Shown here: in pieces, positions 30,035 through 64,000 of the stretch
How positions within the stretch are numbered: position 1 is the first letter of the stretch
Layout: every line of letters starts with the position of its first letter
IMG/VR virus record: IMGVR_UViG_3300027816_000067
Coordinates: 8,322 to 72,321 of that record
Reading direction: 5' to 3' (one strand)
Source: a virus
Taxonomy: Duplodnaviria; Heunggongvirae; Uroviricota; Caudoviricetes; Crassvirales
DNA length: 64,000 nt
The notes under the pieces: model-generated
Databases searched by the model: none
Told to the model about the DNA's origin: nothing
What the model saw: the letters and a program-made list of their open reading frames with translations, nothing else
Translations under genes and position numbers: made by a program

Positions 30035-30370
30035 GGGGCAGATTGGTTTTGACATGAATAGTTATATTATATAATCAAGCGTAGGGAAGTATGTTGTACC
30101 TACTGAAAATGCGCATACAACAACGATTGCTAAAGAAGCAAAAGTAGTGCCTATGTTTCCTCAAGGAGTAAATGTAGGACAAAGTGAAGGTGTTCAGCTA
30201 CGTGTAGCTGCTTAAAGAACACTTAGTTTAAGTTGAACAGGTTTAATTCTATATAATGTACCTTAAACAAATATAGATGGTGGAAGGTGTTCCTATCGGG
30301 AAGCCCCAAAGCTTGTATAAATTGTATAATGTAGTATTTATGGACAGGGGTTCGATTCCCCTCTGCTCCA
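30035..30370 (+). ncRNA. ssrA: tmRNA (ssrA), standard one-piece form
   Basis: 5' GGGGCAGATTGGTTTTGACATG resembles the tmRNA 5' consensus GGGGCUGAUUCUGGAUUCGACGGG. 3' GGACAGGGGTTCGATTCCCCTCTGCTCCA resembles GGACGGGGGUUCAAAUCCCCCCGGCUCCA. The acceptor stem GGGGCAG/CTGCTCC carries the G3-U70 wobble needed for alanylation, with discriminator A and no encoded CCA. An internal reading frame ends ...GVQLRVAA-TAA at 30213-30215, a typical tag ending. Confidence 0.75.
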
Positions 30371-30389
30371 CTAATAAGTTGAACACTGG

Positions 30390-30474
30390 GCCATTGTGTT
30401 GGAACTGGTAGACAAGACAGACTTAAAATCTGTTGTTCGTTAAGAACGTGGAGGTTCGATTCCTCTCAATGGTA
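30390..30474 (+). tRNA. tRNA-Leu (anticodon UAA), type II
   Basis: Acceptor GCCATTG/CAATGGT with G1-U72 wobble. Anticodon stem ACAGA/TCTGT with loop CTTAAAA. Long variable-arm hairpin GTTCGTTAAGAAC. T-arm GGAGG-TTCGATT-CCTCT. Discriminator A. Confidence 0.7.
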
Positions 30475-30572
30475 CGACTAGTTAGAGATTTTGCTATTTC
30501 TCTTTAATCAGATAGCGGGTGTACGGAACTACCAAGTGATCCTTTTTATTTAATTTTCTAAAGTACATTTTT

Positions 30573-54512: not shown

Positions 54513-54532
54513 TAAATAAAATGGTCTTGCAA

Positions 54533-54600
54533 CACAAATTGCAAGACCATTTTCTTTTAATCGTCTGTATCTTTATACAGATCGGTTGTTTTTATTGCAT
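54533..54600. terminator. Bidirectional intrinsic terminator pair between convergent gene blocks
   Basis: Perfect 10-bp stem GGTCTTGCAA cacaaa TTGCAAGACC flanked by T/A runs on both sides, plus a second hairpin GTCTGTAT ctt ATACAGAT. Lies between the plus block (ending 54512) and the minus block (ending 54604). Confidence 0.7.
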
Positions 54601-54603
54601 CTA

Positions 54604-55941
54604 TTAGCGACTCAGCGCAAAATCAAAATGATGCACATTATTTCTACTAGAATTAGCCACAAATATAGAAAATCCTGGTGAACAACTGTAACCATTTTCC
54701 TCTGCCCATCTGTTTCCTGTAACGATAGGAGCCACAGTTACAGCCCTATATTTGTTTGTGTCACTAAGTATTGTATTCTTTTCCTGAAAAATTTTTGTAC
54801 TTTTACGTATATGTAAATGCGCGGTCAAGAATACATTGTACTTACTTTGATCTCCATATTCAAAAACTACTTTACCTAAATCTTGTTTTGCTATTTTATG
54901 ATCTCCATGATTTAGAATATAGCAGATATTATCAATTTCAGTATTAATGATAAAAGGATGCCAAGTTGTAGGTACTGTTTTGCTTAACATATAAGCTACA
55001 ATTTGTGCTGCTCCACCATCTTTATCCATAGGTTTTTCTGGAGTTAGTCTATCATGATTACCACTAACCATATAGACGTGTTTTAAATTATTTATAGAAG
55101 ACAACATCTTATGCAGTAATTCATATGCTGCAATAATAAGATTTCCGCCTGTCATTCCAAACTCCATTTCTTTAAGAGTCTCTATTTTATTATAGCCAGT
55201 TACAGACTCTACCAAATCTCCCAATATTACAACGTGTACTTCTTTAAATCCGAGTTGATTTGTTTTAGTAACTATTTCTGTAAGATATTCTGTTAATTTA
55301 CGAACATTGTATTCTTGTGTATGTTTAGTAAATTTCTCTATTTTTAGTCCAGCATGAATATCAGCTAAAGCAACAACTCCCGCATTAAAATTTTCTGTCT
55401 TAACAATATTTATCTTATCATTTTTAACAAATTGATTCACAATTTTATATATCTTTTGATAATCAATCTCGTTTTCTTTCTTTACAAGCTGAACATTTAC
55501 TAAATAGTTAGTCTTTTTTACGGGAGTGTGTACTATTTTACCATCTTTTATTTTTTCTATTTTCATTGAAGTATCCCAAGACTTACAATTCCAGGATACT
55601 ACTTTCCAAATTTTAGTATCTACTTCAAAGTAATCTAAAGCTTCTTTTAAAGAAGTAATAGGTTTTTCTGTCTTAGCTTTAAGTTCTCTAGTATTCTCAT
55701 TTTCAAAAATTTCTCTTCCATTTTCACCCAAAGTAATTTGAGGTGCTGTATTACGTGTTTTTATTACACTTTTGGTTTTTAAATACTTTTTATATAAAGA
55801 AATAGTAAATGTTTGATTACCTTCTTCTTTTTCTTTAATTATAAAAGCTTTAATACAATCATTATCTGTTTCAAATTCTCCTCTAACTTCATCGTAAAAA
55901 TCATAAAATTTAGTTCGTAATTTAACATTAATTTGAGACAT
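54604..55941 (-). CDS. Calcineurin-like metallophosphoesterase
   Basis: 445 aa. Motif ADIHAG (D-x-H), GDLVE (GDxxD/E), GNHD. Immediately downstream of the giant protein gene, with the stop/start separated by 1 nt. Confidence 0.75.
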   Translation of the reverse strand: MSQINVKLRTKFYDFYDEVRGEFETDNDCIKAFIIKEKEEGNQTFTISLYKKYLKTKSVIKTRNTAPQITLGENGREIFENENTRELKAKTEKPITSLKEALDYFEVDTKIWKVVSWNCKSWDTSMKIEKIKDGKIVHTPVKKTNYLVNVQLVKKENEIDYQKIYKIVNQFVKNDKINIVKTENFNAGVVALADIHAGLKIEKFTKHTQEYNVRKLTEYLTEIVTKTNQLGFKEVHVVILGDLVESVTGYNKIETLKEMEFGMTGGNLIIAAYELLHKMLSSINNLKHVYMVSGNHDRLTPEKPMDKDGGAAQIVAYMLSKTVPTTWHPFIINTEIDNICYILNHGDHKIAKQDLGKVVFEYGDQSKYNVFLTAHLHIRKSTKIFQEKNTILSDTNKYRAVTVAPIVTGNRWAEENGYSCSPGFSIFVANSSRNNVHHFDFALSR

Positions 55942-55942
55942 A

Positions 55943-58900
55943 TTATTCTATTATAGTGTTAGTTAACGACACAAGTACTGGAGGATTATTACTAAAAAAC
56001 TTTAATTGCTCTTCAGGAGTTCTAGCATTGTAGTAAGTACCAGCAAAAGGTACTAATTCAATACCTATAATCTCATAATTCTTTAATCCCTTGTACTTTC
56101 CTTTCTCCATTTCATCGTTCCAATTCCAAACTTCTATTAATCTTTGTAACTTTTCAATTTGACGAATTGCAGGAAGAGGACTACGTGCAAGACGTATAGC
56201 TTCTTGAGGGTTACTATAAAACTGCAATTCAGAATGTATTCTCAATGCTTCGTAAGCAATAAATGCTGCTACCCAATTATCTTCATCATCTGCATATGCA
56301 GTAGCTAAAGAAGCTATTGCTGCTGTAGCAAGCATAAAACTAAATTCTGTGGCAACACGGATTAAATTAGCTTTTTCTACTGCTTTTATAGTTTCGTCAG
56401 TAGTTCCTAAAGTATCTTTAAGTTCTGTCAATTCTAGAATAGAACGTTTTAACACTCTCCACAGTGTTGTGTAATATCCTTCTGTATAAATTTCCCCTTC
56501 CTCATTATAAGTAAGTTTTTCAAATCGTCTGTTCCACCCTGGTTTCATCCATTTTCTAAATAATAAACCCATTCGTCCTATAGCATATCTATGAACTGCT
56601 GCTTTATCTATATCATTATAGATACCATGTAATCTCTTATTTAAGAAGTTTTGTCTGTTAATAAATCTATTAACATCTTTTTGAGTCAATGGCTTACCGT
56701 TTTCTTCTTTCTTAAATAAATCAGTTGCTTTTTCTCCTCCTACCTTTGTCAATCCTTCTTTTAATTTAAGTCTATAAGATGGATTTTCCTCTGTTCCCAC
56801 ATTTACAACATCATAAGCTTCCCAAAGAGTCATTATATTTCCTTCAGTATCTTTTACTTTTATTCTTTGAGCAAGTGCTAAAGAAGATTTAAGCTGCATA
56901 TAATGTTCACCACTTCTATTCATAAAGTATAAACTAGATTGAGTAAACATTCTAGAGAACCAATTTGTTCTACCAGTATTTGCGTCTCTTAATTCTCTAT
57001 TGTAGTCTTGCAGTGTATTATGATATTCACTCCATAAGCTTAATTTATTAGATACATTTCTAGCACCAATATCTTTTAAAGTACTAGGTAATTCACTTAA
57101 ATAAATTTTATCTGCTTCTAATAAATCTTTATTAGTAATAAGTTCTCCAGCAAATGCTTCCATTCTAGTCATTATATTACCATAAGCTAAGTTAGCAACA
57201 CCTGCATAAACGTTCAAAGCAAGAGAAGATAAAGATGTATATTTATTTAAAGTATCTGCAAGCTTTGCAAATTTTTCATCTTTCTTTTCATTACCATAAA
57301 TTACCATTTCCATATAATCTTGATAACGTGCAAATGCTTTACTATTTTCACCTTTAATAGTAATTTGTTTACCTTTTTCTCCTTCTTTTTTAAAGTAAGT
57401 AATAGGATCAAAAGTACCTGTTAATATTTCTCTTTCAATAAGAATATCTTTAGATAGTTCCACCATATCTACTACTTTACTAATAGCCTGATAGTTATAA
57501 GCTGAGTTAACTAAAGCAATTAATGAAGAACTTGCATCAGTAGATAATTGTGTAGGATCAATAGGTCTAGTATAGAACATAGGTACAAAATTTACAGGAT
57601 TACCTTTTTCATCTGTAAGTTTTGTTAATCCAAACTCTATATCATCACCAGCTTGCTTTTTAAAAGCTTCCAGTATAGTTTCCTTACCTTCGTTTAAATA
57701 ATCTTTAGGAGATTTAAGAGTTCTTTCTCCATTTTTATCTACAAAAGCTAATCTTTCAAAGAAATCTTTTCTTACTTGTGGCATATAACCAAATAGTTTA
57801 TATGCTTCAGGTAATTGAGATTCTACTTCTTTTAATAAATTAGTATATTTATCATAATAAGCTTTAAGTGCTGGATTATTTTCAATCTCTGCAAATTGAC
57901 GGCTTAAATACTTATCAGAAGGAACAGCAAGTTCTTTAATATATCTAAGTTCACGCTCTCCACTTTCAGGATTATATATTTCTGTACTATTTTTAGCAAC
58001 CCAGGCATTATACTCCCTTATACCAATACGTTGACCATATCGTGTAATAAATTCCTTTTTCTTATTTTCTAAAACTTCTTTATAATTAGGATTTACTTGA
58101 GTATTAATACTAAACCACTCTGCTACTTTTCTATTCCACTCTCTTTGTTTAAATGCATCTTCTGGTTTTGGTCCAATAGACTTAAAAAAGGCAGATTTTG
58201 CTTTATTATATTCAGCAACATTCCACTTACTAATCATTCTACCTGAAAGATTGCCTGCAAAATCTCTTTCATACATCCAATTAGTAGATTTAATACCAGC
58301 TTTTTCTAATTCCTGCTGCATATCTACTATAGATTTTGCTTTTTCTAGTAATGGTACTCTATAATTATTTAATGAGTCTTTAACAATAATATCAATAATT
58401 TTTAAAATAGGATCACCGGATTCAGCTAAAGCATCTAAACCTCGTTGAGTAAAAGAAATATCTTTTTCTAATACTTCTAGTGCTTTTTCCATATCCTGTT
58501 TTAATTTAGGATTAGATGAAAAAGACTTAAATATATCAGCAAGAAGTGTTTTACCTAATTTTAAATAATTATTTTTTAAAGCTTGAGTAGTCACATAGGT
58601 ATCACTAGCTTTAACATTAATACTATTATTCGTAAAAGGTTTATCTGTTGCTAATTTTTCTAATGTACTTTCAAAACCTAAAACATAATTTTGTGCAGAA
58701 CGAAGAGTATTAATTAATTCTCTTTTTTCTTCTAAAGTTTCAGGTATTCCATTTTTAATAATTTCACCGATTTGATTATATCGTTTTGCAACTGTATCCA
58801 ATTCAATTCGTGCATTAGCTAAATATCTTAATAAACCTAACTCATATTTCTCTTTATTAAGATCTTTTATTAATTTGTCAAAAATGTCTTTTTCTCTTTG

Positions 58901-61900
58901 TAAGTAGGTACTACCAGCTTTTCTTTCATATAAAGATAATTTCTTAAAAATAGAATCAATACCAAGTTTAAGAGTTTCTATATTATCGTTAATGTCTTTT
59001 TCAGAACTTAACTTATAAAATACCTCTCCAATTTTAATATTTCTGTTAGTAAATATATTGGTATTACCAGCTAATATTTGTTCTGCAATATATTCTGTAA
59101 TACTATTTACTTCTTTATTAAAATCAGCTATATCTACTTTTCTAAAAATACCAATAAATCTGTTCCATAAAGCTTCTAAGAATTGAAGTACTACGTTATT
59201 AGTGTTTTTTCTAGTTTCATTATACCGCTTAACAATAGCTTTTCCTATAAGTTTACCAATCGTTTCTCTTTTTAAAGTAGTTATATCTCCAGCATAAATC
59301 TCTCCATATTCATTTACTACTTCTTTATACTCGGCAGTATTTTGAACTAAACCCATTAAACTATCGTGAAAAGATGTTCCTCTAGTAAATGCTTCTGCAA
59401 AGTGTCCAATTTCTTCAGGAAGAGTATTTACATTTTCTTTATTTTGTGAAATAAGAATAAGTTTATTGTAAATATCCGCAGCACCAGCAGCATCTATACC
59501 TAATCTAGATTTAAGATTTTCGTGTGCTTCTACTTTAATTCCTAAAGAACTAGCAAATGTTTTTAATATATTATTAAGATTTTCATCTGCTTTCTTAACG
59601 TTTTGTTGAGAATTTTCTAAAGAATATAAAGTTGTATAATCATAATCTACATCGAAGTAGCTGTCAGCATTAATAGATTTGATTTTGTTAGAAGGTATAT
59701 TTGTTTCAGCAGGATTTAATTTATCAAACTCTACAATATGGTTTTCATATCCTAGATTTTCCTGAATATTAAATACAGTTTCATTATTTTTAGTAGTTCC
59801 ACTATATTTAAAAGTATAGGTGATACCGTTACTATTTTCGTATAAAAACCGATTACGTATTACTTTCCCTTCTTCATCATAAATACCTAAACTTCTACTT
59901 TTAGCTTCGTCAAATTTCATACTAGTAACAAAACCACCTTTATTCTTTTTTGTTACAGTTACATCTTCTTTTTTCAAAGTTTGAAGTAAAGTATTATAAG
60001 TACTTTTATGTCTATATATTTGATCTAAATAATTTGCAATTAAATGCGTACTATCTTTTTCATTTTGTAATCTATATACAAAATCTCGATAAGAAACATC
60101 CTCTTTATTTCTTAGGTTTTCTAAGAAATTAATAGGAGTTAGATGAGAAAATCCAGTATATTTAAATCCTAAATATGTAGTAAAAAAAGCATAGTTTAAT
60201 AAATCATTGGCCATTCCTTTAATCTCTACATTATCAGAACCTAACATAGATTCCCAAGCATCTTGTAATCGCTCTATCTGCTCATTACTAATAGTAGCAG
60301 CAGAAGTAAACTCAATTCTTTGTAGGTTATTAAACGAACTCTTACTTTTAACAGCAAGATATTTAATCAATTCTAATTCAGGATATTTTTTCTTTAATGC
60401 TACAAATTTAGCAGGGTATTCATTTATATAATATAATTTTTTAGTCTCATCAAAGAAACTAAAATCACTTATATAAAAATGAATAAAGTTATTAAATACA
60501 TAATTTATTTCATCTGCTGTTAATTCTTGACCTTTATTATTTTCTAAAACATTAACTAATGTCTTAAATAGTTTTCCATTATAAGGAAAATATCTAGATA
60601 GTATCTCCTCTTGTGGTTTTTTAACACCGTATTCAATAGATATATCAATTAAAGGAATATTTAAAACTGAATCAATTCCAGTTAAAGATTTTAGTTTACT
60701 TACATTACCAACACTTTCTAAAAAATGAGTATTTTCTGCAAGAGTTTTACCTACACCATTAGTATCTGCTTTTGAAGCTTTAATTAAAGCAGATAATTGT
60801 TTGCCTGTTTTTCTTAATTCTAAGAAAGTTTCTAAAACTTTAGCTTGTAATAGTGCTGCTTTACGTTTTGCAGTAGGATCAGGAATATTAGCAAGACTCA
60901 CAAAAGATTTTCCTAATTCTTTTGTACTTAAATCATACATTTTAGATTTAGGATAATCTCCAATAATTTTTGTAAGTTGTTGCCGTAAATCTGTTACAAT
61001 CTTATCAACTTTTGCTTCTGACTTATTTTGATTATTATATTGATTAACTAGATTTTTTAAGATAGATTGATTAATAAAATACATCGCTGTTTTTAAACTA
61101 AATCCAGCACGTATAATTAAAGCAACACTATCAAAAGTAAATAAGTTAAGATTTAAACCAGTTGCTACGGGGTCTTTTGCTGTATCTACAAACGCACCTA
61201 AAAATTCTGCTAAGTTTTGACCTACTGATCTTCCTTGCTCTGTTGTTTCCGTAGTATGTAAAGAAGATCTTCTTTCTCCGTCAAAACTAATTGATTGTGT
61301 TAAACCAAGTTTAGAATATTGAGTAAGAGCATGACTACTATTGTGATTAGCAGCAAGACCAATTAAATTCCCACCATTACTATTGATATCAAAATATTTA
61401 CTTTCTGTTCTTGGTAATATAATATTATCTTGACGTATCAACGCTCCATAAGAATCTCTTATTTCATTATGTAGAGTTTTTAAAGTATCAAATCCACCTG
61501 GAGTTAATACTTTACTCGACATATCAGGATGAGAATATATACTGTTTATAATATCTAATAATGCATTATCTCTCTGAACTTTAGATAAAGTTTCAGGTTT
61601 ATCTAAATTATATTTTACTTTTCTTAACTTCCAATTTACTTCTTCTAGAGTAGGAAGAATAGTGTAAATTTTATCAATATCGAAGTCTTCACCAGCAATA
61701 GTAGTAATATCATAAGGTAGTAAAGCAACACTACCCATAATATCGGGAGTAAATCCTACAATTTTCATTTTTTTAATAGAGTACCATCCTTCTGTGGGAA
61801 TACGATAGCCTATTAATTCTAATACTTCTGGAGATTCTTTTTGAAGCTGTTCAATATCTACTTCACCTTTCTTATCTTTTAATTCAAAAAACTTACGAGT

Positions 61901-64000
61901 ATAAGCAGGAAGCATTACTTCCATATACTCTACTCCACCTTCTTTATTTTTTACTATTTTTAATTTCTTATCTAATCCCCAACTAGAAACCAAAGTAAGA
62001 GAAGCACCAGCAATTTTTTGTTTTGTAACATTATTACGAATAACAGCATTTAAAATATTTTGTGTTCTTCTACCATGAATAGGATCAAATAGAGGAATAT
62101 TAAATATTTTATTACCTTCTTGATCAATTACAATTTTTAAAGCTTCGGCATAAGACTCACTTAGACCACGATCTCTAACTTGTTCTAATAGCAATTTTTG
62201 AACACTTTCAATGGTCTGAAATTCACCAGATAGAGTATTATAAGATTCTATAATATTATCTGTTAATAGTTTTTGATAGGTTTTGAATAATTCTTGTTTA
62301 TTCATACCCATAATTTCAATATTATCAGGAATTTCAGATAAAGCTAATTTCTTAAACTGAGTTCCAAGTAATACTTCAATATCTAAATGTTTAGCTGGTA
62401 CTCTTTGCTGAATACCATAATCCTTATTATTTAAGATGTGAATAACTGGTTTTGCACCTTTTAAAAATTCTTCTACTGTTACTGCACCGTATTCTCCTAC
62501 TTTAACAGCAGAGTCTGCAAATTGAATTTCATCAATATTATTAGCATCCATGTAATCCAGTAATTTTTTTAATACTGGATTTTCTTTAGCCATAGCTGGC
62601 GTAAGTAATGCTTGGCTGTTTTTATGCTGTACTGGTATAATTATATCAGTACCATCTATATTTTCGTGTGTAAATGCAAAAGGCTTTATAGAAGATGGTA
62701 GAAAATTAGAAAATCCTGTACTCCATGCTCCTTTCTGTGCTTTTTGATAAGTAGATTCGTGTTGATCTGTCCATTTACCAATACCAATCATTATGTTTTT
62801 ATATCTATTTAAACGAATAAATGATTGAGCATCTGTAACATTTACATTTTTAAATAGTTCTGTATCTTCTTTAACATCTTTTAAATAAATACTTTTATAA
62901 TATTGTCCAACACCAGTACCATCTTTCCAAACAGCAGTAGTATCTAGTCTATCTGTTAATTTATAAATTTGACCATTACGTTTTTGAAATGTAATAGAAT
63001 CTTTATAGAAAGATAGATCAATAGATGTTAATTGAATAATATTAACATTAGCGTGAACTTTATTATAAAAATAATCTTTTAAATTATCTACTAAATTACC
63101 ATTACTAGTTACAAAAAACGAAGTTTGATCTCCTTTTATTACTTCTAATGTAGTTAAACGATCTAGTTCTATTTTAAATTCTTCATTTAACCAATTAGTA
63201 ATAGCTTCTTTAGCAGCTTTTATATTATTAATATCTATATTAGGATCGTTAAAGATAGTTAAAAACTGATATTCTTTACCTCTAGTTTCCCAATGTTTAA
63301 TACCTAATTCTTTATAAGTATCTACTTTTTCAATTCTTTCTTTTTCTGCTAAAGCTACTTGATATAAGTTATCTACTATTTCTTGCTTAGTATATTTTTT
63401 AAATCTAATAGTAGGTGAAGTAGGACTATCAGAAAGAATTGGTACTCTGTAATATGCAAATTTTCCAGAATTAAACAAAGCAATATCTGATATTGCTAAA
63501 TCTTTTTCTGTCATTTTACTAAATGCCGTACCTTTATTAGTGTCAAATAAATTAATTCCATTAAGAATAGCTAGACTAAAATTCTCTCTTAATTCATAAT
63601 TTTCTTCTTTATCTAAATCATTTAAAAAAGCATTAGATTTAAACCACCAGTTTTCTAGTAATTGTTTTCTATTATTATTTTTCTTTAAATCAGTAATTAA
63701 ATTAGATAAGAAAGTAGGAAGTGCGTAACTATATACTTGTTCACCTTCAATGTTAATTACAGAATCTAAATGTAATTGAAGACTATTTGAAGCAACAGTT
63801 GTAGATACGCTTATAAGAGAAGATGATTCGGCTGTGTCTCCTTCATAAGGATTAATACTTGCTGTAATAGAAGTTAAAATAGTAGTTAAAGAACGAGGTC
63901 CGCCTATAAAATTATATAAATTTTCAACAGCTGTAAGTCCTTCAGTACTATAATAAGTGGGTCTTTCTATAAACTCATTTATAAATACTTTAGGAGAGAT
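55943..64000 (-). CDS. Giant protein (at least 2685 aa; N-terminus beyond the window), candidate virion-associated/ejected protein with an RNA-polymerase-like DFDID motif
   Basis: The ORF track starts it at 63514 (2523 aa), but the same frame stays open with no stop through 63515-64000. That is a further 162 codons, which I translated by eye (...NWWFKSNAFLNDLDKEENYELRENFSLAILNGINLFDTNKGTAFSK-MTEKDL), so the gene continues past the window. Residues ~606-614 (track numbering) read IAGEDFDIDKIY, a hydrophobic strand followed by an Asp triad. Confidence 0.85.
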   Translation of the reverse strand: MSPKVFINEFIERPTYYSTEGLTAVENLYNFIGGPRSLTTILTSITASINPYEGDTAESSSLISVSTTVASNSLQLHLDSVINIEGEQVYSYALPTFLSNLITDLKKNNNRKQLLENWWFKSNAFLNDLDKEENYELRENFSLAILNGINLFDTNKGTAFSKMTEKDLAISDIALFNSGKFAYYRVPILSDSPTSPTIRFKKYTKQEIVDNLYQVALAEKERIEKVDTYKELGIKHWETRGKEYQFLTIFNDPNIDINNIKAAKEAITNWLNEEFKIELDRLTTLEVIKGDQTSFFVTSNGNLVDNLKDYFYNKVHANVNIIQLTSIDLSFYKDSITFQKRNGQIYKLTDRLDTTAVWKDGTGVGQYYKSIYLKDVKEDTELFKNVNVTDAQSFIRLNRYKNIMIGIGKWTDQHESTYQKAQKGAWSTGFSNFLPSSIKPFAFTHENIDGTDIIIPVQHKNSQALLTPAMAKENPVLKKLLDYMDANNIDEIQFADSAVKVGEYGAVTVEEFLKGAKPVIHILNNKDYGIQQRVPAKHLDIEVLLGTQFKKLALSEIPDNIEIMGMNKQELFKTYQKLLTDNIIESYNTLSGEFQTIESVQKLLLEQVRDRGLSESYAEALKIVIDQEGNKIFNIPLFDPIHGRRTQNILNAVIRNNVTKQKIAGASLTLVSSWGLDKKLKIVKNKEGGVEYMEVMLPAYTRKFFELKDKKGEVDIEQLQKESPEVLELIGYRIPTEGWYSIKKMKIVGFTPDIMGSVALLPYDITTIAGEDFDIDKIYTILPTLEEVNWKLRKVKYNLDKPETLSKVQRDNALLDIINSIYSHPDMSSKVLTPGGFDTLKTLHNEIRDSYGALIRQDNIILPRTESKYFDINSNGGNLIGLAANHNSSHALTQYSKLGLTQSISFDGERRSSLHTTETTEQGRSVGQNLAEFLGAFVDTAKDPVATGLNLNLFTFDSVALIIRAGFSLKTAMYFINQSILKNLVNQYNNQNKSEAKVDKIVTDLRQQLTKIIGDYPKSKMYDLSTKELGKSFVSLANIPDPTAKRKAALLQAKVLETFLELRKTGKQLSALIKASKADTNGVGKTLAENTHFLESVGNVSKLKSLTGIDSVLNIPLIDISIEYGVKKPQEEILSRYFPYNGKLFKTLVNVLENNKGQELTADEINYVFNNFIHFYISDFSFFDETKKLYYINEYPAKFVALKKKYPELELIKYLAVKSKSSFNNLQRIEFTSAATISNEQIERLQDAWESMLGSDNVEIKGMANDLLNYAFFTTYLGFKYTGFSHLTPINFLENLRNKEDVSYRDFVYRLQNEKDSTHLIANYLDQIYRHKSTYNTLLQTLKKEDVTVTKKNKGGFVTSMKFDEAKSRSLGIYDEEGKVIRNRFLYENSNGITYTFKYSGTTKNNETVFNIQENLGYENHIVEFDKLNPAETNIPSNKIKSINADSYFDVDYDYTTLYSLENSQQNVKKADENLNNILKTFASSLGIKVEAHENLKSRLGIDAAGAADIYNKLILISQNKENVNTLPEEIGHFAEAFTRGTSFHDSLMGLVQNTAEYKEVVNEYGEIYAGDITTLKRETIGKLIGKAIVKRYNETRKNTNNVVLQFLEALWNRFIGIFRKVDIADFNKEVNSITEYIAEQILAGNTNIFTNRNIKIGEVFYKLSSEKDINDNIETLKLGIDSIFKKLSLYERKAGSTYLQREKDIFDKLIKDLNKEKYELGLLRYLANARIELDTVAKRYNQIGEIIKNGIPETLEEKRELINTLRSAQNYVLGFESTLEKLATDKPFTNNSINVKASDTYVTTQALKNNYLKLGKTLLADIFKSFSSNPKLKQDMEKALEVLEKDISFTQRGLDALAESGDPILKIIDIIVKDSLNNYRVPLLEKAKSIVDMQQELEKAGIKSTNWMYERDFAGNLSGRMISKWNVAEYNKAKSAFFKSIGPKPEDAFKQREWNRKVAEWFSINTQVNPNYKEVLENKKKEFITRYGQRIGIREYNAWVAKNSTEIYNPESGERELRYIKELAVPSDKYLSRQFAEIENNPALKAYYDKYTNLLKEVESQLPEAYKLFGYMPQVRKDFFERLAFVDKNGERTLKSPKDYLNEGKETILEAFKKQAGDDIEFGLTKLTDEKGNPVNFVPMFYTRPIDPTQLSTDASSSLIALVNSAYNYQAISKVVDMVELSKDILIEREILTGTFDPITYFKKEGEKGKQITIKGENSKAFARYQDYMEMVIYGNEKKDEKFAKLADTLNKYTSLSSLALNVYAGVANLAYGNIMTRMEAFAGELITNKDLLEADKIYLSELPSTLKDIGARNVSNKLSLWSEYHNTLQDYNRELRDANTGRTNWFSRMFTQSSLYFMNRSGEHYMQLKSSLALAQRIKVKDTEGNIMTLWEAYDVVNVGTEENPSYRLKLKEGLTKVGGEKATDLFKKEENGKPLTQKDVNRFINRQNFLNKRLHGIYNDIDKAAVHRYAIGRMGLLFRKWMKPGWNRRFEKLTYNEEGEIYTEGYYTTLWRVLKRSILELTELKDTLGTTDETIKAVEKANLIRVATEFSFMLATAAIASLATAYADDEDNWVAAFIAYEALRIHSELQFYSNPQEAIRLARSPLPAIRQIEKLQRLIEVWNWNDEMEKGKYKGLKNYEIIGIELVPFAGTYYNARTPEEQLKFFSNNPPVLVSLTNTIIE

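Follow-up and report, generated by a model that had tools for sequence, protein, structure and literature searches.

A probable virion RNA polymerase polyprotein gene of an uncultivated crassvirus, with an in-frame gp49-like part and a downstream metallophosphoesterase gene

In an uncultivated crAss-like phage (crassvirus), a giant minus-strand gene at one end of the window (the whole stretch of 64,000 nucleotides analyzed here) encodes, with a probability of roughly 88%, the virion RNA polymerase polyprotein. Its C-terminal 2685 codons plus the stop codon occupy positions 55943-64000, as judged from the open frame and from the gene call in a second locus, L001. Despite its divergence, the gene is a typical member of the crAss-like virion two-barrel RNA polymerase (RNAP) family, in a polyprotein form that has already been described. 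The result is a correct annotation rather than a discovery, in which the giant open reading frame (ORF) would be an injected early-transcription enzyme in fused form, and its value is comparative, the sequence having diverged with every catalytic landmark conserved.

The frame contains no stop for 2685 codons, from position 64000 to 55946 on the minus strand, and runs off the window edge; the 5' end of the gene is outside the window. Over the identical DNA in L001, the two remaining frames of the same strand hold 309 and 555 stops in ~3330 codons. Because stops crowd these two frames and the G+C content around the open frame is only 27-30%, an 8-kb open frame is non-random. L001 (the 122-kb metagenome contig ERZ27247984 k141_1465020 or, at JGI, 3300008105 Ga0114338_1000146), which differs from the window at 1 base in 19,397, has the whole giant gene called at 4895 amino acids (aa). 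The ATG at 63514 (residue 163; residues of the giant protein are counted from the window edge unless stated) is not the gene start, because residues 1-162 align to the homologue P0001 (49% identity overall, with the alignment beginning at residue 1), because residues 78-209, which lie before and past this ATG, align to PhiCrAss001 gp50, and because of the 4895-aa call. The first-pass annotation had already stated that the ORF does not start at 63514 and stays open to the edge, which agrees with all of these observations.

Residues 78-1331 (60008-63769, minus strand) form a catalytic RNAP subunit homologous to residues 583-2203 of PhiCrAss001 gp50 (blastp E = 9e-120) and to phi14:2 gp66 (phmmer E = 1.4e-27). 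The gp66 structure 6VR4, entitled 'DNA-dependent RNA polymerase', was the one significant phmmer match in the PDB and is collinear with the query in three stretches (query 33-1090 against chain 495-1771), while tblastn matches fell in genes annotated as putative RNA polymerase or RNA-polymerase subunit in PhiCrAss001 and its relatives. Query AGEDFDIDKIYTILP aligns to gp66 TGSDFDIDKMYVMLP, published as the catalytic 1361-DFDID-1365, and the phmmer alignment pairs AGEDFDIDKIY with gp66 TGSDFDIDKMY. By this alignment, the query DFDID (residues 772-776; 61673-61687, minus strand) occupies the place of the catalytic Mg2+-binding loop and is the predicted aspartate triad with which the beta-prime-like barrel binds Mg2+. 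G770, D772, F773, D774, D776, and K777 are invariant in an alignment of 19 diverse homologues, and the motif was found in 120 of the 120 listed homologues. A crAss-type virion RNAP had been proposed earlier from DFDID alone, and the hypothesis is now supported by the 6VR4 sequence match and the crassvirus context. The motif itself is real; its earlier placement at about residues 606-614 of an in-window numbering is really a count from the ATG at 63514, in which GEDFDIDKIY spans 608-617, against 770-779 from the window edge.

The polymerase core was modelled over residues 280-1120 (60641-63163, minus strand), and the model contains both domains of the double-psi beta-barrel (DPBB) type, the connector, a bridge helix, and the trigger-loop region, i.e., two barrels and a connector predicted in one chain with an overall fold like that of 6VR4. 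The first-pass annotation had named two DPBB domains as the feature to look for, and a non-DPBB context of the motif or an alignment to tail-needle giants as contrary outcomes; both barrels are in the model, and neither contrary outcome was seen. The first (beta-like) barrel carries the blocks VNVTDAQ (386-392) and PVQHKNS (456-462), which span 62615-62845 on the minus strand and align to gp66 VNQTDAQ and PTYLKYSQ, with the lysine and serine conserved in the second pair. N387, D390, Q392, K439, Q458, and K460 are invariant in the 19 homologues. The predicted equivalent of the gp66 bridge helix (residues 858-893; 61322-61429, minus strand) is modelled as one 31-residue helix over residues 863-893, and residues 858-888 align to native residues 1529-1559 of gp66, as counted on the alignment. 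Residues 925-963 (61112-61228, minus strand) align to the gp66 trigger loop (native 1598-1636) and include an invariant AFVDxAKDP block, in which A936, V938, D939, K942, and D943 are unchanged across the 19-homologue alignment. Equivalents of the bridge helix and the trigger loop are thus present by alignment and model, not by function; the limits of these elements in gp66, the numbering of its 1361-DFDID-1365 motif, and the functions of gp66 are taken from a preprint (10.1101/2020.03.07.982082).

Behind the polymerase core, the sequence reads on in frame into a part homologous to the cargo protein gp49. Residues 1438-2669 (55994-59689, minus strand) match PhiCrAss001 gp49 157-1347 with 29% identity (blastp E = 1.6e-143), the similarity being collinear and full-length, and also match a 1369-aa ORF of bajarodcaudo virus (blastp E = 6e-153). 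gp49 is a cargo protein of the virion, associated with the RNAP, and was detected in virions (PMC10172136), and the gp50-gp49 fusion is collinear with the PhiCrAss001 gene order. The N-terminal part of relatives carries the conserved zincin motif HEAFH (at 1311 in P0001 and at 1274 in P0275), and the N terminus of P0001 matches the p-crAssphage 'RNAP associated protein fused to zincin protease'. At least two of the gp50/gp49/gp47-type proteins, and probably all three, are contained in one ORF here. The 2685 residues in the window hold no HExxH; the L001 flank extends the in-window protein by 647 residues upstream, and the first ~1560 residues of the 4895 aa lie outside the sequence read.

Just upstream of the window, the giant protein contains an extremely conserved, uncharacterized module of ~190 aa, which also occurs in giant proteins of the polyvalent type that carry Zeta-toxin or ADP-ribosyltransferase domains; its profile gave nothing significant against the PDB and Pfam. 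From a local alignment to P0001, the zincin HExxH could be read as lost and replaced by this module. We rejected that reading as unproven, because in P0275, which is more closely related, HEAFH comes ~600 residues upstream of the equivalent point, a place that in this phage falls in the unread stretch. Strains differ by in-frame and frame-breaking deletions in the giant gene, which makes them a natural experiment on the need for the fusion. In the L003 strain, a 130-nt deletion splits the gene into products of 1551 and 3110 aa, so either the fusion is not essential or the L003 contig has an assembly error. A 90-nt deletion is seen in L002.

The window is part of an uncultivated crassvirus with ~29% G+C, for which the relatives suggest a host among the Bacteroidota. 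On the same strand as the giant gene, it encodes a Crass_capsid major capsid protein (PF23898, E = 2e-62), a portal, and a large terminase (TerL). The giant gene lies at the end of this structural (late) strand, convergent with the replication block, which is the location of the crassvirus transcription block. At 54518-54553, where the late block (minus) and the replication block (plus) converge, we found a bidirectional intrinsic-terminator-like hairpin with a 15-16 bp stem and T-runs on both strands, as the first-pass claim of a convergent terminator would have it; the terminator scan gave 2 sites against 0.4 expected. In the relative L068, whose giant protein is 49% identical, the muzzle protein crAss_MUZ (PF25731) and two ~650-aa proteins are followed by the giant gene and then by a 445-aa Metallophos gene.

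The giant-protein family comprises 3354 cluster representatives at E <= 1e-3. Half of the best 144 new representatives (72/144) are at least 3000 aa long, and many database relatives measure 3000-5200 aa, with the core 2000-3000 residues from the N terminus. The nearest cluster representative is P0275, with 69% identity in the core and about 62% over the full alignment. A megablast search of deposited phage genomes with the 8 kb gave no match, and an IMG/VR search for the gene itself returned relatives only. The identical protein is indexed in 198 blocks of a public assembly collection, in which a number of copies carry a bacterial MAG contig label.

Directly downstream, as had been claimed from its motifs, lies a gene for a calcineurin-like metallophosphoesterase of 445 aa with an extra N-terminal domain of ~170 aa (54604-55941, minus strand). 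The protein shows the motifs ADIHAG, GDLVE, GNHD, NHGDH, and AHLH, matches Pfam Metallophos PF00149 (22.9 bits against a cut-off of 21.5) and phrog_284 (E = 1.3e-18), and has D194, H196, D242, N295, H296, H345, H375, and H377 invariant in 25 homologues. Its AF2 model matched Mre11, GpdQ, and LpxH in Foldseek with a probability of 1.00 and E values of about 1e-6 to 1e-4. By these motifs and the predicted alpha/beta sandwich fold, it belongs to the calcineurin-like metallophosphoesterase superfamily. Assignment to the SbcD/Mre11 family (TIGR00619) was rejected at 15.8 bits against a cut-off of 77.65, the only support being the 'exonuclease' label of the PHROG, and so was assignment to PdeM (21 bits against 150). 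Relatives in Bacillus phages are annotated as exonuclease or metallophosphatase. The protein most likely acts in nucleic-acid metabolism, as a nuclease or a phosphodiesterase; it is a separate enzyme, probably translationally coupled and encoded by the last gene of the same operon.

The first-pass annotation described the two genes as paired. A functional partnership, in which the metallophosphoesterase would be a co-packaged cargo enzyme or an RNA/DNA end-processing factor for early transcription, appears unlikely to us. Such a partnership would fit the gap of 1 nt between the giant gene's stop codon and the metallophosphoesterase ATG, the same gene order in L068, where the two genes overlap by 8 nt though the giant proteins are only 49% identical, and the conservation of the enzyme, whose metal ligands are all invariant across 25 homologues. 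However, adjacency is the sole link. The nearest phage relatives of the enzyme belong to Tenacibaculum, Olleya, and Cellulophaga phages, which are not crAss-like by name and record size (35-43 kb), and to Bacillus phages; the PHROG class is DNA/RNA metabolism, and the fold matches are generic. Moreover, neither of the characterized crassviruses compared (PhiCrAss001 and bajarodcaudo virus) has a metallophosphoesterase at this place beside the RNAP. The pairing therefore stands as adjacency that recurs in a 49%-identical relative, and the functional link, for which conserved adjacency is the one argument, is unsupported. It is tempting to speculate further that a protease-like part, a variable cassette, the polymerase, and the gp49-like part are made, and perhaps delivered, as one ~4900-aa chain, that the translationally coupled metallophosphoesterase is a clade-specific injected component, e.g., acting on nucleic-acid ends in early transcription, and that the site just upstream of the window is a swap site for effector-like modules, but we regard this combination as decidedly doubtful.

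As a virion RNAP polyprotein, the giant protein would, by comparison with characterized relatives, be made late, packed in the capsid as cargo, and sent out through the tail into the host, either before the DNA or together with it. It may then be processed into separate parts in the host, since relatives carry the zincin-type HEAFH protease motif N-terminally. The polymerase would transcribe the phage early genes independently of the rifampicin-sensitive host RNA polymerase, and the middle and late genes would be left to the host enzyme. Identity to the characterized proteins is about 23-29%, and at this distance we infer packaging, ejection, cleavage, template preference, and timing by homology.

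We consider it very improbable that this two-barrel RNAP is instead a non-virion enzyme, made after infection for middle or late transcription and left unpackaged, like YonO or the non-virion RNAPs of phiKZ and AR9. Its by far closest relatives, gp66 and gp50/gp49, are found in virions. The gene ends the structural (late) strand and in L068 comes after the muzzle and cargo-like genes, and fusion to a gp49-like and, in relatives, a gp47-like cargo protein is typical of the packaged set. Hardly credible is a mainly structural ejectosome or channel protein with a vestigial, inactive polymerase-like domain. About two thirds of the 4895 aa are without a recognizable enzymatic domain, as such a protein would have it, and searches of Pfam, PHROGs, and NCBIfam with the giant protein and its relatives returned sub-threshold noise alone (OGG_N, DUF2400, INTS4_8HBD); these curated libraries do not cover the family. 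In contrast, the aspartate triad with its flanks, the first-barrel lysines, and the trigger-loop-aligned block are invariant despite ~30-50% overall identity, indicating purifying selection on catalysis, and gp66 has RNAP activity. Within the window, a hydropathy scan of the giant protein gave a single borderline stretch (residues 945-963; score 1.51, threshold 1.5), and because it sits in the polymerase core, we see no sign of a membrane-channel part. An N4-type virion RNAP with a right-hand, T7-like fold was rejected, as no T7- or N4-like polymerase is among the listed fold and sequence matches, in which the RNA polymerases are all two-barrel enzymes. The searches brought up no YonO structure or sequence either, and the first-pass mention of YonO is a general analogy.

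Among known systems, phi14:2 gp66 is a virion protein and a solved, biochemically characterized, active RNAP, and rifampicin-resistant DNA-dependent RNA synthesis and early-gene transcription have been shown for gp66 only (10.1101/2020.03.07.982082). gp66 is a separate protein of 2180 aa, encoded between the separate genes g065 and g067, with 1360 residues ahead of the motif, whereas the polymerase described here is embedded in a 4895-aa frame in which ~2980 residues precede DFDID and a gp49-like part of ~1250 aa is fused behind it. The N-terminal cleft-blocking (self-inhibiting) domain of gp66 (residues 196-233; 10.1101/2020.03.07.982082) was not recognized in our alignment, which begins at gp66 chain residue 495; an equivalent would fall upstream of the window. 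In PhiCrAss001, mass spectrometry of virions detected gp47, gp49, and gp50 (PMC10172136), and gp50 and gp49 (together with gp47) are described as 'RNA polymerase-associated' cargo proteins (Shkoporov 2018; Bayfield 2023). The gp50-like and gp49-like parts of the giant protein follow the order of these adjacent genes, and gp47-type sequence occurs in the N-terminal part of its relatives. In contrast, PhiCrAss001 encodes these proteins in three genes, of which gp47 is on the opposite strand; identity to the giant protein is only about 29%, and PhiCrAss001 lacks a metallophosphoesterase gene after gp49.

The metallophosphoesterase shares the canonical metal motifs DxH, GD, GNH[D/E], H, and GHxH and the predicted fold with Mre11/SbcD, GpdQ, and LpxH-type enzymes, but differs from the SbcD and PdeM families, whose cut-offs it falls far below, and in its extra N-terminal domain. 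For the polymerase, the resemblance to the eukaryotic RNAi polymerases QDE-1 and RDR2 and to other two-barrel RNAPs, at ~11% identity and with no detectable sequence similarity, is one of fold class, not of family membership. The same kind of protein has been described from environmental crAss-like phages as fused RNAP 'polyproteins' (Yutin et al., 2018, cited through the gp66 paper); according to that account, a single very large ORF joins a protein that contains a protease, the RNAP, and the third cargo protein.

Translated from the window edge inward, the minus strand gave 2685 stop-free codons between positions 64000 and 55946, ending at a stop codon at 55945-55943, in agreement with the giant gene (55943-64000) described in the first-pass annotation. 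In the identical DNA of the public contig L001, the other two frames of the same strand contained 309 and 555 stops in ~3330 codons and, with a G+C content of 27-30% around the gene, an open frame of this length is far beyond chance. A mechanical ORF listing had placed the start at the ATG at 63514, which falls at residue 163 within the open frame (residues are numbered from the window edge). Residues 1-162 align to P0001, a 49%-identical giant relative of 4494 aa, and residues 78-209 align to gp50 of phage PhiCrAss001, which supports the earlier view that the frame runs on to the window edge and shows that the true start is not at 63514. A lookup of the exact 445-aa protein encoded just downstream in public assemblies returned three contigs with an identical copy, which show 1-2 base differences to the window across 19.4 kb. 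In the longest of them, L001 (ENA ERZ27247984 k141_1465020, 122 kb), the giant gene has a called length of 4895 aa, therefore the window holds its C-terminal 55%. Two antisense TTG-start ORFs within the gene (59950-60132 and 60207-60431, plus strand; 60 and 74 aa) are most likely spurious.

The motif GEDFDIDKIY, from which a crAss-type virion RNA polymerase had been guessed, is present at residues 770-779, with DFDID at 772-776 (window 61673-61687); its original in-window position of 606-614 corresponds to a count from the ATG at 63514. We compared the giant protein with all PDB chains using phmmer and obtained a single significant match (E = 1.4e-27), to 6VR4, which is gp66, the DNA-dependent RNA polymerase that the crAss-like Cellulophaga phage phi14:2 packages in its virion. 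Three collinear stretches join query residues 33-1090 to chain residues 495-1771, and the segment ...TTIAGEDFDIDKIYTILP pairs with ...TKTGSDFDIDKMYVMLP of gp66. The crystallised chain has 2194 residues and native gp66 has 2180, lengths from which an offset of 14 was inferred. By manual count on this alignment, residues 858-888 pair with native 1529-1559 of gp66, its bridge helix, and residues 925-963 with 1598-1636, its trigger loop; the limits of both elements follow the gp66 preprint (10.1101/2020.03.07.982082). G-x-DFD[IV]DK occurs in 120 of the 120 best database homologues. In a core alignment of 19 diverse homologues, 29-52% identical to the core, invariant residues are found in the catalytic block (G770, D772, F773, D774, D776 and K777), in the first barrel (N387, D390, Q392, K439, Q458 and K460) and in the trigger-loop region (A936, V938, D939, K942 and D943), and the set of catalytic landmarks is intact.

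To test the fold, as the first-pass annotation had proposed, we built a template-free AlphaFold2 model of residues 280-1120 on the 19-sequence alignment (mean pLDDT 79, pTM 0.78). In a Foldseek search of the PDB, 6vr4_A was the only match below 1e-3 (E = 6.5e-31, TM 0.76 normalised by query), and the weaker matches were mostly the largest subunits of multisubunit RNA polymerases, which places DFDID in a double-psi beta-barrel of a two-barrel polymerase core and not in a tail fibre or lysin domain. One 31-residue helix (residues 863-893) is predicted where the gp66 bridge helix aligns. Altogether, the 6VR4 match, the invariant catalytic residues and the predicted two-barrel fold corroborate the polymerase assignment.

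Against the annotated PhiCrAss001 genes, blastp matched residues 78-1331 to gp50 583-2203 (E = 9e-120) and residues 1438-2669 to gp49 157-1347 (E = 1.6e-143). In PhiCrAss001 gp50 and gp49 are separate adjacent genes, whereas the matching parts lie in identical order inside the giant ORF, which is thus a gp50-gp49 fusion. Together with gp47, these are the three 'RNA polymerase-associated' cargo proteins found in PhiCrAss001 virions (PMC10172136). The N-terminal part of P0001 matches p-crAssphage gp45, annotated as 'putative RNAP associated protein fused to zincin protease', as well as 'putative RNA-polymerase subunit' genes of PhiCrAss001-like phages, which lie just beyond gp49 on the strand opposite gp50/gp49 and, by position, are gp47. 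A HEAFH motif is conserved in P0001, P0002, P0003, P0006, P0008, P0009 and the nearest cluster representative, P0275. An exhaustive HMMER search with the core matched 3354 cluster representatives at E<=1e-3, 1120 of them also at E<=1e-30. The 144 best new representatives include 72 proteins of 3000 aa or more, of which 20 reach at least 4000 aa, and in the longer proteins 2000-3000 residues typically separate the core from the N-terminus; the fused arrangement is common.

A search of deposited phage genomes found none near-identical to ours, and the best tblastn identities of the giant protein to deposited phages were ~29%. In the best-matching one, bajarodcaudo virus 1 (PQ006092.1, 4240-12423), the polymerase gene is broken directly after the DFD of the catalytic motif: a 1498-aa ORF stops at query residue 774, a 243-aa 'endonuclease' ORF comes next, and the ORF after it takes up the polymerase from query residue 792. 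The arrangement resembles an insertion of an intron or homing endonuclease, as reported for crAss-like RNA polymerase genes (PMC7886860).

Beyond the window edge, ~1.35-1.94 kb past position 64000, the same giant gene carries an extremely conserved module of ~190 aa (L001:1-600), in which two near-invariant halves, ..FLQLLNKDNNWVTFFIKSIIQDSAKKGYEKVLFPSGNTASKVEGHTTLEEFKKQKEDRI.. and ..EINQLKQELERVEKEGFGALKPIYNFYENTVxNILKKQGYNP..ITDEYGNTW.., surround a variable insert. In most of 62 IMG/VR loci and in >100 proteins the module shows 50-68% identity; it lies in giant ORFs that also have a DFDxD motif, or else in separate ORFs (~1200-2800 aa), and some copies co-occur with Zeta_toxin/AAA_33, ART-PolyVal or PDDEXK domains. 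The module profile had no significant match in the PDB, and Pfam scans of the carrier proteins matched other domains only; P0001 and P0275 lack the module at the matching position. The otherwise near-identical contigs L001, L002 and L003 differ, within their first ~900 nt, by indels inside the giant gene (a 90-nt in-frame deletion in L002 and a 130-nt frame-breaking deletion in L003, which leaves the gene in two parts of 1551 and 3110 aa) and in a further variable stretch at the start of the module. The differences may reflect genuine variation between strains or errors of assembly.

The window belongs to a crassvirus. Within 1.3-12.9 kb the minus strand encodes a Crass_capsid major capsid protein (PF23898, E 2e-62; phrog_11589), a portal protein (phrog_6547) and a large terminase subunit (phrog_6681), and a plus-strand replication block at 19.6-54.5 kb has genes for a family-A DNA polymerase, ligase, helicases, primase and ThyX, with UDG also seen among the called genes of the public contigs. 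This block contains a full-length tmRNA gene (30035-30475, plus strand; Rfam RF00023, 102.6 bits where the gathering threshold is 47, E 5.6e-39, all 374 model positions covered) with the ARAGORN tag peptide VGQSEGVQLRVAA*, followed after 16 nt by tRNA-Leu(TAA); it is a complete phage-borne gene, not an att-site fragment. The giant gene and the phosphoesterase gene end the late strand and, as first proposed, meet the convergent replication genes at a bidirectional hairpin terminator (54518-54553). The 92.7-kb contig of P0001 has the order muzzle protein (PF25731 crAss_MUZ), 649-aa gene, 645-aa gene, 4494-aa giant, 445-aa Metallophos gene and convergent replication genes; a second Metallophos/Metallophos_2 gene lies in its replication block (L068 24975-25485).

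The 445-aa protein (54604-55941, minus strand) contains ADIHAG, GDLVE, GNHD, NHGDH and AHLH, its metal ligands are invariant in 25 homologues, and it passes the Pfam Metallophos cut-off narrowly, so that its identification as a calcineurin-like phosphoesterase holds. It also matches phrog_284 'exonuclease' (E 1.3e-18), and its AlphaFold2 model (pLDDT 78) matches Mre11, GpdQ and LpxH (Foldseek E 1e-6 to 1e-4); an extra N-terminal domain spans ~170 aa. Membership of SbcD or PdeM was rejected, the scores being below both family thresholds. The closest phage homologues found are from phages of Tenacibaculum, Olleya and Cellulophaga (genomes of 35-43 kb), and next come those of Bacillus and Brevibacillus phages; no characterised crassvirus is among them. 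The identical protein is recorded as 'MAG: metallophosphoesterase [Planctomycetota bacterium]' at NCBI and as 'LpxH' at JGI, and 104 contigs, up to 125 kb long, carry it; bacterial MAGs evidently include contigs of this phage, and the protein is misnamed. Its pairing with the giant gene stands as gene order (a 1-nt spacer in the window, an 8-nt overlap in the P0001 contig), whereas a functional tie to transcription is without support.

In the giant gene, which occupies a crassvirus late-strand location, the polymerase core is fused to a gp49-like part. By analogy with phi14:2 and PhiCrAss001, the protein would be synthesized late, stored as capsid cargo and passed through the tail partly unfolded; it would then refold, possibly matured by proteolysis, and transcribe early genes in a rifampicin-resistant manner from a template that is probably locally single-stranded, before host RNA polymerase takes over the middle and late genes. 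Gene order and domain comparisons might also evoke an uncleaved single-chain machine, a phosphoesterase partner specific to the clade and, just upstream of the window, a site where modules are swapped, a picture that we consider improbable. To P0275 (5057 aa) the identity is 69% in the core and ~62% over 3150 residues. The kind is already known, fused form included, and the present sequence is a new, diverged member.
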